A stretch of DNA of 5,471 nt, from IMG/VR virus record IMGVR_UViG_2713896904_000005; one strand, given 5' to 3'. Below are positions 790-5,280 of the stretch, piece after piece. The DNA is from a virus (lineage: Duplodnaviria; Heunggongvirae; Uroviricota; Caudoviricetes). Below the pieces are notes generated by a model that saw only the letters and a list, made by a program, of their open reading frames with translations, was not told where the DNA came from and searched no databases. Positions within the stretch are counted from its first letter, which is position 1. Each line of letters starts with the position of its first letter. The position numbers and the translations under genes were made by a program.

Positions 790-1179
790 TCAGGCGGCTG
801 CACCCGCCGGTTTCTCGTACTTCCTGATAGTGATCTCGACCTTCCCTTCCGGGATAACCGGTCCCCACTCCACCAGCATTCTTTTCACCTGACTGTCGTC
901 TTCCCACACACCCGCGTGGGTCAGGGCGTCAAACAGCGCCTTGTTATAGTTGTCCAGATCGCGGATCCGGTTATCCGGAGGAAACAACACGATCTCCACT
1001 GAAGCAGGTGCCGACGTTGGTTTTGGCAGACGACGTAACTGCTCAACTATTGCTGCACACGCCGCGCTCTGGAATTTGTGCCCCGCTGCGCTTATCAGGC
1101 TCTTACCAGCAAACGCCCCTTTGTTAGGGTGTCGCCAGTACGTGTTCACGCTGGGCGGAAAAGGCAGTATTAGCTTCAT
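790..1179 (-). CDS. rusA: Holliday junction resolvase RusA (crossover junction endodeoxyribonuclease)
   Basis: 129-aa ORF MKLILPFPPSVNTYWRH...DNRIRDLDNYNKALFDALTHAGVWEDDSQV matches E. coli RusA as I recall it (LPWPPSNNRYYR...[29 protein letters not shown]), including the acidic catalytic residues. Start overlaps the upstream gene by 4 nt (ATGA). Confidence 0.9.
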   Translation of the reverse strand: MKLILPFPPSVNTYWRHPNKGAFAGKSLISAAGHKFQSAACAAIVEQLRRLPKPTSAPASVEIVLFPPDNRIRDLDNYNKALFDALTHAGVWEDDSQVKRMLVEWGPVIPEGKVEITIRKYEKPAGAAA

Positions 1180-1502
1180 ACTTTCAGGCCCCTCTCATGT
1201 AACCAGTGGGCTGCACGCAGCCTGGCGTTTTCCTCACCGGCAAGCAGTGAGCGGATAATCCCGACCGCCTCGCTGTCGTCGTCCTTCACCGCGGTATGAA
1301 GCGTTATCCCCCGGGCCACGCCACGCTTTATCGTGATGACGCCTTTTTTCTCCAGCGCACGAAGATGCTCCACCGCTGCATTCACCGAACGGTATCCCAG
1401 CATGGTTGCCACCTCCTGATTGGTTGGTGGGAAGCCACGTTCTTTCTGATAAGAAATCAGCATATCCAGCACCTGCTGCTGGCATTGAGTTAACGTCGTC
1501 AT
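1176..1502 (-). CDS. LexA N-terminal DNA-binding-domain-like protein lacking the S24 peptidase domain (108 aa)
   Basis: MTTLTQCQQQVLDMLISYQKERGFPPTNQEVATMLGYRSVNAAVEHLRALEKKGVITIKRGVARGITL aligns colinearly with the LexA N-terminus ([68 protein letters not shown]). The ORF stops about 40 residues after the domain; no Ala-Gly site or Ser/Lys dyad. ATG at 1502..1500 overlaps the upstream TAA (TAATG) and follows a GGGGG SD-like run. The ORF track's alternative start at 1535 is a GTG. Confidence 0.7.
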   Translation of the reverse strand: MTTLTQCQQQVLDMLISYQKERGFPPTNQEVATMLGYRSVNAAVEHLRALEKKGVITIKRGVARGITLHTAVKDDDSEAVGIIRSLLAGEENARLRAAHWLHERGLKV

Positions 1503-1990
1503 TAAGCCCCCACGTAATTCCCTGACAGATACCACTCTTCACCCGATGCAGCGCGCTTGCTGCTTTTCCGTAAGCACCGCTCACGACGCGCCAGAAAATT
1601 GTTTCGTTCTGGCTGGGAGTGGCTTTCACGGAATGCCGCCATCCACACCGTTGCAGCACGACGGTATAAGCCCCTGGACTCCAGTTCTTCAGCCTGGCGG
1701 GTCAGGCACAAAATCTCCCGCGGGTCGTTAGTGCCGACATAGAAATTGCGCACAGGTCTGGTTTCACGAACTGGTTGTGGTTCCGCCTCCTGCGCTCTCT
1801 CAGTCAGGCGCGGGAAATGTCTGCGTGTATCCCCTTCACAACGGTGAGCCACACGACCACTCTGACGTAACTTGCTTGCTGACTGCAGAACGCGCTGCCG
1901 TGAGTAACCTGCAAAAGCATCCGCAATGTCTCCGGAAGTACACCCCGGATGGGCTTCAATGTATTTCTGAACTTCATTCAAAAGACTCAT
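1502..1990 (-). CDS. Hypothetical small regulator with a PerC-like C-terminal motif (162 aa)
   Basis: ORF directly after the O-like gene. ATG at 1990..1988 is 2 nt after the O stop (TGA 1995..1993) and is preceded by GGGGGTGA. The C-terminal segment LESRGLYRRAATVWMAAFRESH...RRERCLRK resembles the PerC/Pch family motif (GLxRRAAxxW...CL) from memory. The N-terminal part (LLNEVQKYIEAHPGCTSGDIADAFAGYSRQRV) looks like a small helix-turn-helix. The track's 1996 start is a GTG two codons upstream. Confidence 0.6.
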   Translation of the reverse strand: MSLLNEVQKYIEAHPGCTSGDIADAFAGYSRQRVLQSASKLRQSGRVAHRCEGDTRRHFPRLTERAQEAEPQPVRETRPVRNFYVGTNDPREILCLTRQAEELESRGLYRRAATVWMAAFRESHSQPERNNFLARRERCLRKSSKRAASGEEWYLSGNYVGA

Positions 1991-1992
1991 GA

Positions 1993-2934
1993 TCACCCCC
2001 TGAATCCTGCCGGGATCTGGCTGTAGTCCACTTTGTCGTAACTGGCTTTGAAGTACGGGTCTTCGCGTTTTTCGGTGTACGTGCTGACGGACGGCGATAA
2101 GCGCAGGGAAAGCTCATCCCATTTTTCCCGCAGCTTCGACGGGCTGAGCACGTTACGGCACCAGAACGGATCGCGACTGACGCGGCTGTACATCTCGCAG
2201 ATTTGTTTGTGAGTACGACCATCCTGCACACACATCAGGCGAATTTCGTTTGCCCAGGCTGTCCAGTTCGGTTCTTTGGGACGAACCACCTCGCCGTCAC
2301 ATTCGGCGGCCTGCTCGTACAGGGCGATGATTTTTTTCCAGAGCCACTGTGCGCAGGTCAAATCATCCTGCGTTCCCCACTGGCGCTTTTTAGGGCTGAA
2401 TACAACCGCATCAGGATGGCGAGTTAAAAACTCCTGTTCAGCCGTCTGCGTGTCCGGTTGCGAAGCGTCCGGACGAGAAGTTTTTTTATCTGACGGATCA
2501 TGTTTTGATTTTACTGACGGATCCCCGCCAGATTCTGACGGGTGAAAACCCGCTTTTTTGCCAGATTTCGACGCATCAAATTTTGACGGGTCAGATTTTG
2601 ATGCGTCAGATTTTGACGGGTCAGAATCTGACAATTGAGAAAATGCCGCTGCCTGAAGCTTCGCAATGTTAAGCTGATAAACATTCGACGCATTGCGGTT
2701 ACCCTGGCGACGCGCCTTACGCGTTAACCAGCCTTCTGCTTCCAGCCGTGCGATAGCCGTTCTGACGGTACTCATCCCCGCGCCAATCTGACGGGCAATG
2801 GTTTCAATTGATGGCCAGCACACACCTTCGTCATTACTGAAATCAGCCAGGCGGGCCATAATTGCCACGCTGGATAATTTCATGCCTGACGCTGCGCAAC
2901 CATCCCATACATAGCCGGTTAATTTAGTGCTCAT
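1993..2934 (-). CDS. Replication initiator protein, lambda O-like (N-terminal helix-turn-helix, iteron-encoding linker)
   Basis: 313-aa ORF with N-terminal MKLSSVAIMARLADFSNDEGVCWPSIETIARQIGAGMSTVRTAIARLEAEGWLTRK, typical of phage replication-initiator HTH domains. AGAGG SD 6 nt before ATG 2934. Low-complexity linker (DPSKSDASKSDPSKFDASKS) is encoded by a tandem DNA repeat array, the lambda O arrangement. Follows cro/CII-like genes. Confidence 0.85.
   Translation of the reverse strand: MSTKLTGYVWDGCAASGMKLSSVAIMARLADFSNDEGVCWPSIETIARQIGAGMSTVRTAIARLEAEGWLTRKARRQGNRNASNVYQLNIAKLQAAAFSQLSDSDPSKSDASKSDPSKFDASKSGKKAGFHPSESGGDPSVKSKHDPSDKKTSRPDASQPDTQTAEQEFLTRHPDAVVFSPKKRQWGTQDDLTCAQWLWKKIIALYEQAAECDGEVVRPKEPNWTAWANEIRLMCVQDGRTHKQICEMYSRVSRDPFWCRNVLSPSKLREKWDELSLRLSPSVSTYTEKREDPYFKASYDKVDYSQIPAGFRG
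2486..2635. repeat. Putative phage origin of replication: array of 15-bp iterons (consensus TCAGATTTTGACGGG) plus flanking AT-rich tract, inside the O-like gene
   Basis: Five contiguous 15-bp units at 2561..2635 (ccagatttcgacgca / tcaaattttgacggg / tcagattttgatgcg / tcagattttgacggg / tcagaatctgacaat). Further copies of the TGACGG core at 2491, 2515 and 2536. A T-rich stretch at 2477..2490 lies on the side expected for an unwinding element. Confidence 0.7.
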
Positions 2935-2943
2935 GACCGACCT

Positions 2944-3282
2944 CTATTTCCCTGAATTTACGACGAAACTGTTCGAGCGGGCTGAAGCACTCATGCTCAT
3001 AGCCTTCACGGAGGTAGATAACCCGTTGTGTTTCCGGCTCCCAACGAATGACTCTGACGGGCACTCCGTAGTGATCTTTGAACCAGCGGTTAACTTGTCG
3101 CAAAGGACTGTCTCCTTCTGCCGGTTGAAATCACCCACAGCCCACTCTGCAAAGCTGTGGGTTACAATTTCCCTGTCACCTGGTACATTCACTGCATAGC
3201 AATACTCCACCTTCGCTTTTCCACCCGGTACAGGAAGCGCAATCAGTTGCGAGCGACGGTAGTGTGTTGTTAAACTGTTCAT
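2944..3282 (-). CDS. Hypothetical protein (112 aa), no recognisable domain
   Basis: ORF between the CII-like and O-like genes. ATG 3282..3280 overlaps the upstream stop (ATGA) and is preceded by GGAGA (rc of 3292..3296). Position and coupling argue for a real gene. Confidence 0.55.
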
Positions 3283-3842
3283 GCGTTAGTTTCTCCACAG
3301 TCACGACACGCCACGGCGCCCGGAGCTGCACACTCGCGGGCGTCATTACTTTCTGAAATGCAAAAGATTTTGTAGACCAGTGCTGCATGCTCCTGCAGCT
3401 TCGAAATTGAGAGATACAGCTCGTCGTTAATTGCTGTCTTCTCATGCGGTTCCACTACACCGTCTTCGATTGCTGAACGAATCTGTTTTGAATAACTGCC
3501 GATCTGTTCAATGACTTCCAGCAGACGCTGGTTAATATCGGCGTTGTCCACATCCTCGACGTCAGGAAGAGACACAAAGACGCCATTTGCAGACTGCGCC
3601 ACAGCGTCAGCAATGAAGTGAGTTCCACCAGCACGTTGCAAAATCATTGCCCATCCCAGCGGGAAAATCTGATCGCCATCGGCACGAAGGCGGTTAAATA
3701 ATGCGTTCTCTGTTACATCCAGCCAGTCAGCTGCTTCAGCGTAACCACCCGGCAACTTTGCGATAGTTTTTCTGACAGCTTTCACGTACCACTCAGGCTG
3801 TTTTTCTACTTTCCAGTGATGCTTACCCACGGTTAGCCTCAT
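3279..3842 (-). CDS. CII-like phage regulatory protein (187 aa; CP76/YdaT-like position after cro)
   Basis: Second gene of the rightward operon, 31 nt after the cro-like stop. N-terminal half has an HTH-like stretch ([42 protein letters not shown]) loosely resembling lambda CII. C-terminus carries four Cys (C-x9-C-x7-C-x2-C). No clear SD before ATG 3842, and no in-frame alternative start upstream before a stop at 3900..3902. Confidence 0.6.
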
Positions 3843-3873
3843 CGTTCTGTGGTTAAAAATTGAAAGTGTTCTG

Positions 3874-4074
3874 CTAATCTTTCGGATAGATATCCGGTCT
3901 TAAGTCAGATTTCGTAATTGCACCTGATGTGTATTGCTCAAGTTTTTTAGCCAGCACAAAACTGGCTTTTTTATAGCCATTGAAAACCAGCCGTAAGTAG
4001 CCAGGTGTTGAGCCAACTTTTCCGGCCAACTCGCCCTGCTGTTCTTTGGTTAAAGAGTCCCAATACGCTTTCAT
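3874..4074 (-). CDS. Cro-like helix-turn-helix repressor (66 aa)
   Basis: MKAYWDSLTKEQQGELAGKVGSTPGYLRLVFNGYKKASFVLAKKLEQYTSGAITKSDLRPDIYPKD is a small Cro/YdaS-type HTH protein with the characteristic C-terminal ...LRPDI motif. Divergent from the CI-like gene. ATG 4074 has GGAGG (rc of 4085..4089) upstream; the track's 4098 start has no SD and falls in the operator region. Confidence 0.8.
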   Translation of the reverse strand: MKAYWDSLTKEQQGELAGKVGSTPGYLRLVFNGYKKASFVLAKKLEQYTSGAITKSDLRPDIYPKD

Positions 4075-4164
4075 ACAATATGTACCTCCGGTGTACATAT
4101 TACATGATTAAAATGAACCTTCAAGATACTTGTACCTTAACGGTACAAGGGTTTTAATTTCGTT
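4075..4164. promoter_or_regulatory. Divergent promoter/operator region (OR-like) between cro-like and CI-like genes
   Basis: Two 19-bp inverted-repeat sites: 4080..4098 ATGTACC-tccgg-TGTACAT (6/7 half-site symmetry) and 4130..4148 TTGTACC-ttaac-GGTACAA (perfect). Candidate cro promoter on the minus strand: -35 TTGAAG (rc of 4119..4124), 16-bp spacer, -10 TAATAT (rc of 4097..4102). Candidate cI promoter -10 TTTAAT at 4153..4158, just before ATG 4165. Confidence 0.6.
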
Positions 4165-4839
4165 ATGAAAACAATCCATGACATCCGGCGGTCTAACGCC
4201 AGAAAACTGAGAGATGGTGTTGGCGGGAATTCTTCCTTTGCCACTATGATTGATCGCGAGCCAACCCAGACCAGCAGGTTTATGGGAGATGGTGCTACTA
4301 AAAATATCGGTGACAGCATGGCACGACACATCGAAAAATGTTTCGACCTGCCTGTAGGATGGCTCGATCAAGAACACCAGACAACGAACATCACAAAAAA
4401 ACCTGATGTTTCAATCACTAATAAACAAATCACATTAGTCCCTGTCATATCATGGGTACAGGCCGGAGCATGGAAAGAAGTTGGATATTCTGAGGTTGAT
4501 TTGAGCACAGCAGAAACGTATCCCTGCCCTGTACCCTGTGGGGAAATGACTTATATCTTGCGGGTGATAGGTGATTCAATGATTGATGAGTACCGCCCGG
4601 GAGACATGATTTTTGTCGATCCTGAAGTACCTGCCTGCCACGGTGACGACGTTATTGCATTGATGCACGATACAGGTGAAACCACCTTCAAAAGGTTGAT
4701 AGAAGATGGGACACAGCGTTATCTCAAAGCGTTAAACCCAAACTGGCCTGAGCCTTACATTAAGATCAACGGTAATTGCTCTATAATTGGTACTGTGATT
4801 TTCTCAGGAAAACCAAGAAGATACAAAATCAAAGCCTAA
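4165..4839 (+). CDS. CI-like phage repressor with N-terminal HTH and C-terminal LexA-type S24 autopeptidase domain
   Basis: 224 aa. HTH region (FATMIDREPTQTSRF...MARHIEKCFDLPVGWLD). Probable cleavage site VQAG-AW (compare lambda CI VQAG-MF). Ser nucleophile in LRVIGDSM and Lys in TTFKRL, matching the LexA/CI Ser-Lys dyad context. Divergent from the cro-like gene. Confidence 0.9.
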   Translation: MKTIHDIRRSNARKLRDGVGGNSSFATMIDREPTQTSRFMGDGATKNIGDSMARHIEKCFDLPVGWLDQEHQTTNITKKPDVSITNKQITLVPVISWVQAGAWKEVGYSEVDLSTAETYPCPVPCGEMTYILRVIGDSMIDEYRPGDMIFVDPEVPACHGDDVIALMHDTGETTFKRLIEDGTQRYLKALNPNWPEPYIKINGNCSIIGTVIFSGKPRRYKIKA

Positions 4840-4851
4840 TCAATGTTTATG

Positions 4852-4874
4852 AACCTGCTTCGGCAGGTTTTTTT
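4852..4874 (+). terminator. Rho-independent terminator downstream of the CI-like gene
   Basis: Stem AACCTGC (4852..4858), UUCG tetraloop (4859..4862), stem GCAGGTT (4863..4869), then a T run through 4874, 13 nt after the CI stop. Confidence 0.75.
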
Positions 4875-5028: not shown

Positions 5029-5073
5029 TCTGGTCCCCATCAACAAGTAACTGATAACTTGAGGAGGTGTGAA

Positions 5074-5280
5074 ATGCACAAAACAGAACCAAAAATCGTC
5101 GCACCCGGATACACAAATGAGGAAATTTACGAGTGGATGGCAAAGAAGCTGGCAGCTATAAACCAGCTTCGTGAAGTGCTGTCTTATCGACAGGAAACAA
5201 TAGACTCCTTAAAAAAACTGGATCAGGAAATCACGGTTTTATCACAGGATGTTACTTTAGATATTGTGCAGACAAATTAG
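5074..5280 (+). CDS. Small hypothetical protein (68 aa), first ORF downstream of the pL-like promoter
   Basis: ATG 5074 preceded by a strong SD GAGGAGG (5061..5067) at 6-nt spacing. Product MHKTEPKIVAPGYTNEEIYEWMAKKLAAINQLREVLSYRQETIDSLKKLDQEITVLSQDVTLDIVQTN is predicted helical/amphipathic with no family I recognise. The track's 5059 start is a TTG that falls on the SD itself. The antisense strand is full of stops. Confidence 0.6.
   Translation: MHKTEPKIVAPGYTNEEIYEWMAKKLAAINQLREVLSYRQETIDSLKKLDQEITVLSQDVTLDIVQTN

Follow-up and report, generated by a model that had tools for sequence, protein, structure and literature searches.

A LexA-type DNA-binding domain with a conserved helical tail and without a protease domain, encoded in the early operon of SfV/e14-like lambdoid prophages

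Introduction

LexA's DNA-binding N-terminal domain (NTD), once free, keeps its capacity to bind SOS boxes and to repress, and needs ClpXP for its removal (PMC10584840). The residues of its helix 3 that contact DNA are S39, N41, A42, E44 and E45, a list taken here from a secondary citation (PMC3091678). In phages, the only stand-alone LexA-NTD homologue studied experimentally that we could find in the searchable literature is gp6 of GIL01, a Bacillus tectivirus whose lysogeny is kept by the host LexA together with gp7 (PMC6182141). Gp6 is a truncated LexA homologue that binds its own palindrome at the -35 of the late promoter P3 and activates P3; it is 44% identical to the NTD of its host LexA, yet it uses a different binding site (PMC6182141). 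Here, we analyse a gene for a LexA-like protein of 108 amino acids (aa) located in a stretch of 5,471 nucleotides (nt) from a virus of the Caudoviricetes (IMG/VR record IMGVR_UViG_2713896904_000005), referred to below as the window. This stretch comes from an SfV/e14-like lambdoid prophage of Escherichia coli, of which it covers the immunity, replication and nin-like segment, and is 99.5% identical to the prophage found beside tRNA-Thr/proA in strain NT1F25.

The gene had been singled out in an original prediction, made from the letters of the window without database searches, as a prophage LexA paralogue reduced to the DNA-binding domain, which could occupy LexA-type operators without being removed by activated RecA (RecA*). 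Its sequence and domain-level annotation are already known from RefSeq, PHROGs and many phage records. What is new here is the conserved helical tail, the vestigial Ala-Gly dipeptide, the lack of an SOS box in the prophage that carries the gene and the fast evolution of its recognition helix.

Results

Integrity of the gene and domain structure of its product

The LexA-like gene lies on the minus strand of the window (1176..1502), where the list of open reading frames (ORFs) and the sequence itself agree on an intact frame read from 1502 to 1176, with an ATG start and a TGA stop at 1178-1176. The extent and the length given in the original prediction, which did not state the strand, were right. 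The product is 100% identical to RefSeq WP_000210164.1 ('LexA family transcriptional regulator'). Upstream, the yfdN/PerC-like gene ends in a stop codon that shares one base with the ATG in a TAATG overlap (1500..1504, minus strand), the coupling that had already been noticed, and a GGGGG run resembling a Shine-Dalgarno sequence is read 6-10 nt 5' of the ATG. At the other end of the gene, an ATGA overlap (1176..1179, minus strand) joins its stop codon to the start codon of rusA. A frameshifted or truncated lexA was ruled out, as rusA follows directly over the stop codon, no S24 peptidase domain is found anywhere downstream, and full-length homologues in many genera end at the same C-terminus. 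The ORF is an intact and conserved gene of SfV/e14-like lambdoid prophages that is selectively maintained.

Residues 1-69 of the protein (1296..1502, minus strand) form a winged helix-turn-helix of the LexA type, as supported by Pfam, AlphaFold2 and Foldseek. The Pfam model PF01726 (LexA_DNA_bind) was covered over its whole length (1-65 of 65; E 2.9e-19) with 69 bits, above the cut-off of 23.7. By BLASTP, the protein was 43% identical to E. coli LexA over 90 aa (E 1e-21), and phmmer matched the structures 1lea and 3jso at 1e-15 to 1e-16, the E value for the E. coli LexA DNA-binding domain 1lea being 7e-16. A monomer model obtained with AlphaFold2 from 40 homologues had a mean pLDDT of 83 for the whole protein, with means of 79-89 for the 10-residue blocks over residues 1-70, and predicted helices at residues 6-22, 28-35 and 40-52 and a beta hairpin at 56-58/66-68. 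The best Foldseek match of this model was the LexA-DNA complex 3jso_B, with a root-mean-square deviation (rmsd) of 1.0 Å over 68 columns and 50% identity; the rmsd values to 3jso and 1lea were 1.0-1.2 Å.

The Pfam search gave no match to Peptidase_S24 (PF00717) in the LexA-like protein, whose chain ends at residue 108. The LexA equivalog TIGR00498 was matched only at model positions 1-91 of 203, with 70.8 bits, below the cut-off of 110.95. The protein fails the definition of LexA, as it remains below this cut-off and has neither the S24 domain nor the catalytic dyad. Because the S24 domain is absent, it cannot autocleave as LexA does in response to RecA*. The original prediction had expected this combination, with a hit to LexA_DNA_bind and none to Peptidase_S24, a fold that superposes on the LexA NTD and no Ser/Lys dyad or protease domain, and it is borne out on all these points.

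A conserved helical tail and a probably vestigial Ala-Gly dipeptide

The same prediction had aligned the 108 aa along their whole length with the LexA NTD and had let the protein end shortly after this domain. The alignment stands for residues 1-69 and overlooked the rest, and the ending was misjudged, since residues 70-108 (1179..1295, minus strand) make up an acidic linker and a family-specific tail, 39 residues with two predicted helices (75-88 and 93-103), as deduced from alignments, column entropies and the AlphaFold2 model. The 10-residue block means along the tail were 61 (residues 71-80), 88, 86 and 76. A97 was invariant in 40 of 40 aligned sequences, with A79 and A93 nearly invariant, and L101 was invariant among the 13 sequences that are at most 80% identical and nearly so over all 40. 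The conserved motif reads hydrophobic-hydrophobic-R-x-L-L ... A-R-x-R-A-x-x-[WFY]-L-x-x-x-G; its hydrophobic positions fall on one side of each helix, a pattern that fits a helical hairpin. The tail may serve in dimerisation or in binding a partner.

An Ala-Gly site had been declared absent, which is literally wrong: the codons GCC GGT (1236..1241, minus strand) encode Ala88-Gly89, and both HMMER and BLASTP aligned Ala88-Gly89-Glu90 (nt 1241-1233) with Ala84-Gly85-Glu86 of LexA; the acidic linker and the hydrophobic stretch ahead of this site are also alike in the two proteins. The dipeptide is not conserved within the family, in which position 88 is A, N, E, K, D or T and position 89 is G, D, R, E or N, and close relatives read LLANEE or LLVGEE at this site. 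By DSSP assignment of secondary structure, the AlphaFold2 model has Ala88-Gly89 at a C-cap or turn that separates the two tail helices; an extended strand-loop is not predicted there. A functional cleavage site was judged very improbable on the basis of this variability and of the predicted helical or turn position. We read Ala88-Gly89 as a vestige of lexA ancestry that was retained as a turn-former.

Distribution of the family and database names

The protein matched phrog_362 over its full length (residues 1-108 against profile positions 1-106 of 106; E 1.4e-59), and it is 97-100% identical to orf42 of SfV and to proteins of SfII, SfIV, mEp460, the cdtI phage, phi1720a-02 and several Stx2a and Stx2c phages. 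Of 5426 complete E. coli genomes, 2233 (41%) carry the gene, with 95-100% nucleotide identity and up to four copies, and it is intact at ≥80% coverage in 2223 E. coli genomes; the exact protein is present on at least 1000 contigs. By profile search, short relatives of 105-135 aa with 39-66% identity were also recovered from Citrobacter, Salmonella, Cronobacter, Klebsiella, Enterobacter, Atlantibacter, Kosakonia and Hafnia. With Escherichia and Shigella included, homologues are known from approximately 10 genera, all of them with the conserved tail. The window protein belongs to this enterobacterial family of short LexA proteins, composed of the NTD and a two-helix tail in 105-135 aa.

The names under which the protein has been deposited differ. 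The records KF030445.1, LR595862.1 and AB285204.1 include 'SOS-response repressor and protease LexA' and 'RecA-mediated autopeptidases', and other annotations of the same protein are 'transcriptional repressor' and 'LexA-like protein'. Those that speak of a protease or autopeptidase are wrong because the protein has no protease domain; they mislead and should not be propagated. A PADLOC search for defence systems returned only a weak, irrelevant match.

Some other proteins of 140-350 aa (P0132, P0133, P0152, P0153, P0156 and others) hold two tandem LexA DNA-binding domains, also without S24; each would amount to a pseudo-dimer of the LexA reading head within a single chain.

Variability of the recognition helix

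The recognition helix SVNAAVEHLRAL (residues 39-50; 1353..1388, minus strand) was located by alignment with LexA, and the original prediction had paired its residues correctly with the LexA string. Four of the five contact residues of LexA are kept in the window allele (S39, N41, A42 and E45), and E44 is replaced by Val. According to the column entropies, S39, N41, L47, L50, K53 and the wing residues R64-G65-I66 are fixed in the short family, and positions 40, 44 and 45 are among its most variable columns (2.1-2.5 bits; 2.3 for position 44 and 2.1 for position 45). Family alignments show variability also across positions 42-46 of helix 3. At least 35 helix-3 variants occur among 180 short-family sequences; the alleles of other lineages read SVNTIAGHLRAL in Citrobacter, SSNAVLLHLRAL in Klebsiella and SPNAATDMLRKL in Cronobacter.

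When the syntenic blocks of E. coli and Citrobacter were compared, cI, Cro, YmfL, DUF4222, RusA, KilA-N and DUF968 were 78-94% identical, whereas the LexA-like protein, at 65%, was the most diverged protein of the block. Four consecutive residues of its helix 3 have changed between the two (AAVE to TIAG), while the cI operators are unchanged.

Search for SOS boxes and operators

A position weight matrix (PWM) was derived from a training set of 20 E. coli SOS boxes, which score 13-27 bits. The window had no PWM match of 9 bits or more. In the complete 33.1-kb prophage of the matching strain, CTGT-N8-ACAG was found zero times and no spacing from 0 to 16 showed an excess of CTGT/ACAG pairs; the best PWM match there reached 13.4 bits inside a tail-fibre assembly gene, and none was comparable to real SOS boxes. 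The absence of CTGT-N8-ACAG and of any match like a real box excludes, for the prophage of the window, that a phage gene is controlled in cis by way of an SOS box. The suggestion that the protein could repress a phage anti-repressor does not hold for a route through such a box.

Two CTG-N10-CAG motifs that lie 26 bp apart in the KilA-N gene (325-370; CTGT-N8-TCAG and CTGT-N8-CCAG on the coding strand) were taken as probable chance occurrences, given their low PWM score, their coding position and their absence from the Salmonella lineage. A hairpin, ACCCACAGC-N12-GCTGTGGGT, is found at 3133-3162 in the minus-strand transcript, approximately 100 nt past the ymfL stop codon. Its position is kept in six lineages (L009 ~27356, L007 ~730, L005 ~3476 and L014 ~6240, for example), and its arms include a G.U pair in the Citrobacter version (CCACAG/TTGTGG), whereas in Cronobacter (CTACCA/TGGTAG) the changes in the two arms compensate each other fully. 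It looks like a conserved RNA structure.

Several strong SOS boxes are present in other phages that carry the gene; they lie at dinI, inside cI and in the 5' end of a methyltransferase gene located downstream of Q. These boxes are not constant partners of the LexA-like gene. One of them, TACTGTAAAAATAAACAGTG (22.5 bits), lies in codons 3-9 of a gene for an N6_N4 DNA methyltransferase between Q and the lysis genes, and boxes of this type were located with the PWM in SfV (L009 34170-34189), mEp460 (L010 41021), L006 (10310) and phi1720a-02 (L011 31556). This suggests LexA control of, or a roadblock on, a late-region moron. Both the methyltransferase gene and its box are absent from the prophage of the window. 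Boxes of 25.8 bits are found inside cI-like repressor genes, in gp38 of mEp460 (L010 31970) and in the gene for a regulatory protein of phi1720a-02 (L011 39531); phi1720a-02 has seven boxes of at least 16 bits in total, and the cI gene of the window has none.

In Klebsiella prophages (L002-L004, 5385-5404), the dinI promoter overlaps with an SOS box close to the consensus, TACTGTTTATTTATACAGTA. The order on one strand is this box (18 of 20 positions), dinI, a 96-aa ORF, the LexA-like gene, a 67-aa ORF and DUF968. Because the box at dinI precedes it on the same strand, the Klebsiella homologue, a protein of 130 aa with an N-terminal extension, may itself be SOS-induced. The replication module and rusA are absent nearby.

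Prophage context

The gene order in the rightward direction is cro, cII-like, O-like, yfdN, LexA-like, rusA, KilA-N, DUF968 and Q. Pfam, PHROG and RefSeq annotation, together with repeats, define the part of the rightward early operon upstream of yfdN (1993..4098, minus strand), which comprises cro/ymfT (to 3874), the cII-like ymfL (3842-3279), a DUF4222 gene (3103-2924) and an O-like replication initiator gene (2934-1993). The YfdN-like gene (1502..1996, minus strand; RefSeq yfdN) encodes 164 aa with a C-terminal PerC domain (PF06069, E 7.5e-09; phrog_1324, E 2.2e-77). A winged helix at its N-terminus has a weak basis, namely the MarR-family phrog_1687 (5.6e-05), the Ren-like phrog_142 and a sub-threshold match to BilQ in NCBIfam. 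Downstream of the LexA-like gene, rusA (790..1179, minus strand) encodes a RusA Holliday-junction resolvase (PF05866, E 1e-14; phrog_34, E 1.3e-56), with no S24 domain. No convincing minus-strand terminator was found between cro and rusA.

The divergent cI-type repressor gene (ymfK-like; 4165..4839, plus strand) encodes an S24 self-cleavage domain (PF00717, E 1.5e-26), and operator palindromes lie near it at 4071-4107 and 4129-4149. It controls transcription of the rightward early operon. A co-resident cleavable CI and a position of the LexA-like gene in the early-right operon had both been predicted, and both were found: the gene is on the same strand as the cro, cII-like and O-like genes and overlaps its neighbours on both sides.

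The nin-like position, from the replication genes (O-like, PerC-like and often Dam) to RusA, KilA-N, DUF968 and Q, is maintained in the nine lineages examined (window/L001, SfV, mEp460, phi1720a-02, Cronobacter, Salmonella, Citrobacter, Atlantibacter and Enterobacter), and in most lineages RusA lies between the LexA-like gene and DUF968/Q. In Klebsiella and Enterobacter, the gene stands apart from the O-like, Dam and PerC genes. Most relatives have a 654-bp dam gene between the yfdN-like and LexA-like genes (29614-30267 in SfV, L009), which is cleanly missing from the window.

Several other elements of the segment were recorded. Overlapping inverted and direct repeats (GTCAGATTTTGAC and variants) at 2505-2640, inside the O-like gene, probably make up the iterons of the phage's origin, an array comparable to that of lambda O/ori. 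A 112-aa ORF (2944-3282, minus strand; phrog_1170, E 2.9e-70), absent from the RefSeq annotation, overlaps the DUF4222 gene (2924-3103) out of frame; at its 5' end it resembles the beginning of SfV orf37, an antirepressor-like protein of 278 aa, and it may be a remnant of a rearrangement. At the ymfL stop codon and the start of the next ORF (3265-3285), the motif ACGC[AG]TGAACAGTTTAA is invariant in six lineages (L005, L007, L009, L014 and L015 included), and the protein encoded downstream of it diverges (one version starts MNSLTANNRL...); the motif may represent a signal in DNA or RNA instead of a coding constraint. Two strong terminator-like hairpins with T-runs face each other, one on the plus strand just after cI (4851-4870) and the other on the minus strand (5015-4996), upstream of a small phrog_1744 gene (5059-5280).

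Discussion

The role that we consider probable for the LexA-like protein is that of a RecA-insensitive, delayed-early DNA-binding regulator, which would dimerise through its tail and read a palindromic operator with helix 3. Its gene would be transcribed within the delayed-early rightward operon, with translation coupled to that of both neighbours, and because of its position in this operon the protein would be made only after inactivation of cI by cleavage, or on infection. Without an S24 domain it cannot autocleave in response to RecA*. It would pair through the helical tail to bind DNA and would regulate transcription during lytic development, with an operator specificity set by helix 3 that would differ between phage lineages. 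The many helix-3 variants of the family, the changes in this helix between E. coli and Citrobacter and the precedent of gp6 support such a lineage-specific reading. With regard to the targets of such a regulator, it is tentatively possible that they are lineage-specific operators other than the host SOS boxes, at which the protein could be a repressor or, as gp6, an activator; it is more doubtful that they are LexA-type boxes bound in trans.

Several points weigh against this proposal. Genes are densely arranged in the surrounding nin-like region, which is nearly devoid of intergenic DNA. No operator was found, and the palindromes that four carrier phages have in common belong for the most part to homologous coding blocks, in addition to a terminator downstream of Q. 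The hairpin at 3133-3162 was discarded as an operator, since Citrobacter, with its altered helix 3, keeps CCACAG, so that the two do not covary. The faster divergence of the protein could reflect relaxed constraint or allele replacement and not a shifting specificity, and we infer dimerisation through the tail from its sequence pattern alone. Finally, no functional study and no expression or binding data on the enterobacterial family were found in the searchable full-text literature; a 'bully phage' preprint on phi1720a-02, which encodes an identical protein, credits interference between prophages to Cro and leaves the LexA-like gene unmentioned.

The protein could instead be a RecA-proof mimic of LexA, which would bind the CTGT-N8-ACAG boxes of the host and of co-resident elements and re-repress the SOS response during lytic growth or infection, a role that we regard as rather unlikely. 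The effects expected from it, on SOS triggered by replication and on LexA-controlled antirepressors of rival prophages, colicins and toxins, which would all be damped, are equally doubtful. Such a mimic would fit the retention of four of the five LexA contact residues (PMC3091678) and the superposition on DNA-bound LexA at 1.0 Å, and the free LexA NTD still represses (PMC10584840), the phage tail taking the place of the C-terminus that cleavage would expose. The lack of an SOS box in the prophage means that any LexA-type target must be in trans, and the carrier phages do invest in SOS modulation, with dinI and SOS boxes in mEp460 and phi1720a-02 and, in Klebsiella, a homologue that shares its strand with an SOS box and dinI and lies approximately 600 bp downstream of them. 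However, E44 is replaced in most of the short family, and positions 44 and 45 are hypervariable although the hosts share one SOS box. A mimic of the host box should be under purifying selection, whereas this is the fastest-diverging protein of the syntenic block, with its changes centred on helix 3. Gp6, at 44% identity to its host NTD, uses another site (PMC6182141), and the 12-bp half-site spacing is imposed by the LexA dimer, which a different dimerisation module need not match. That a mimic present in approximately 40% of E. coli strains silences SOS in trans despite RecA*, with the turnover of helix 3 as the mark of an arms race, is less likely still.

A main function other than transcription control, as a protein-protein or replication and recombination accessory to the O-like protein, Dam, RusA or the origin, is improbable. 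The gene lies among genes of DNA metabolism (O-like, Dam in most relatives, RusA) and is coupled to them, and there are matches to DnaD_N (E 0.15) and to the O-like phrog_678 (E 0.0086); however, neither match comes near the threshold, and both stem from the common winged-helix fold. What the protein resembles strongly and specifically is the DNA-reading head of a repressor, with S39, N41 and R64-G65-I66 invariant, and the Klebsiella and Enterobacter genes lie away from O-like, Dam and PerC. It is very improbable that Ala88-Gly89 is functional, being cut in trans by LexA, UmuD or cI with RecA*, so that the protein would be sensitive to damage. The alignment of Ala88-Gly89-Glu90 with the LexA site after a similar linker speaks for it, and work by Kim and Little from 1993 is said to have described intermolecular cleavage by C-terminal fragments of LexA and cI. 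Cleavage in trans is inefficient, and the substitutions at positions 88 and 89 and the location of the dipeptide at a predicted helix end or turn speak against it. As for a functionless remnant of a captured lexA, the protein does resemble a 5' portion of lexA that extends through the region of the cleavage site, but the idea is barely credible for an open frame whose length and C-terminal extension are conserved in some 10 genera, which is intact in so many E. coli genomes and which is translationally coupled to both neighbours.

The consequences depend on the operator. If SOS boxes are bound, a large fraction of E. coli, Shigella and Shiga-toxin (Stx) phage lysogens would carry a RecA-proof SOS repressor that is active at prophage induction, with a bearing on the induction of Stx phages, on competition between prophages and on antibiotic-induced mutagenesis; a true mimic would suppress the antirepressors of rival prophages, colicins, toxins and SOS-induced mutagenesis. 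If the protein has its own operator, a regulatory layer of a very common lambdoid group has gone unrecognised, and this would be the second independent reuse of the LexA head after GIL01 gp6.

Compared with the LexA NTD, the phage protein has the same fold, with approximately 50% identity in the domain, the same framework S-x-N-A-A-x-E-H-L-[KR]-A-L and wing R-G-I, and a similarity that runs through the acidic linker to Ala-Gly-Glu. It differs in that LexA has an S24 domain, which is also its dimerisation part, where the phage protein has its two-helix tail, in the Val in place of E44 and in being phage-encoded and, judging by its position, expressed from a lytic operon. Proteins that act against SOS, such as the prophage DinI homologues and GIL01 gp7, would be comparable if the LexA mimicry discussed above were true, as elements that dampen or reshape the host SOS response, and dinI with SOS boxes co-occurs with the gene in several carrier phages (mEp460 and phi1720a-02 among them). 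Unlike the window protein, to which they have no kinship in sequence or fold, DinI homologues and gp7 contact RecA or the LexA protein and not operators.

GIL01 gp6 shares with the window protein a LexA DNA-binding domain without a protease in a temperate phage and, probably, an early lytic expression, which for the window protein is predicted from its place in the operon. The differences are that gp6 has 66 aa and no tail, and that GIL01 has no cI of its own, whereas the prophage of the window has an S24 cI and a Q antiterminator. BLASTP gave no local alignment between the two proteins at E ≤ 100, and orthology was ruled out. Because no pairwise similarity is detectable, their derivation appears independent, and the window protein is, on the evidence of these comparisons, an analogue of gp6 that comes from a proteobacterial lexA, as gp6 comes from a Firmicute LexA.

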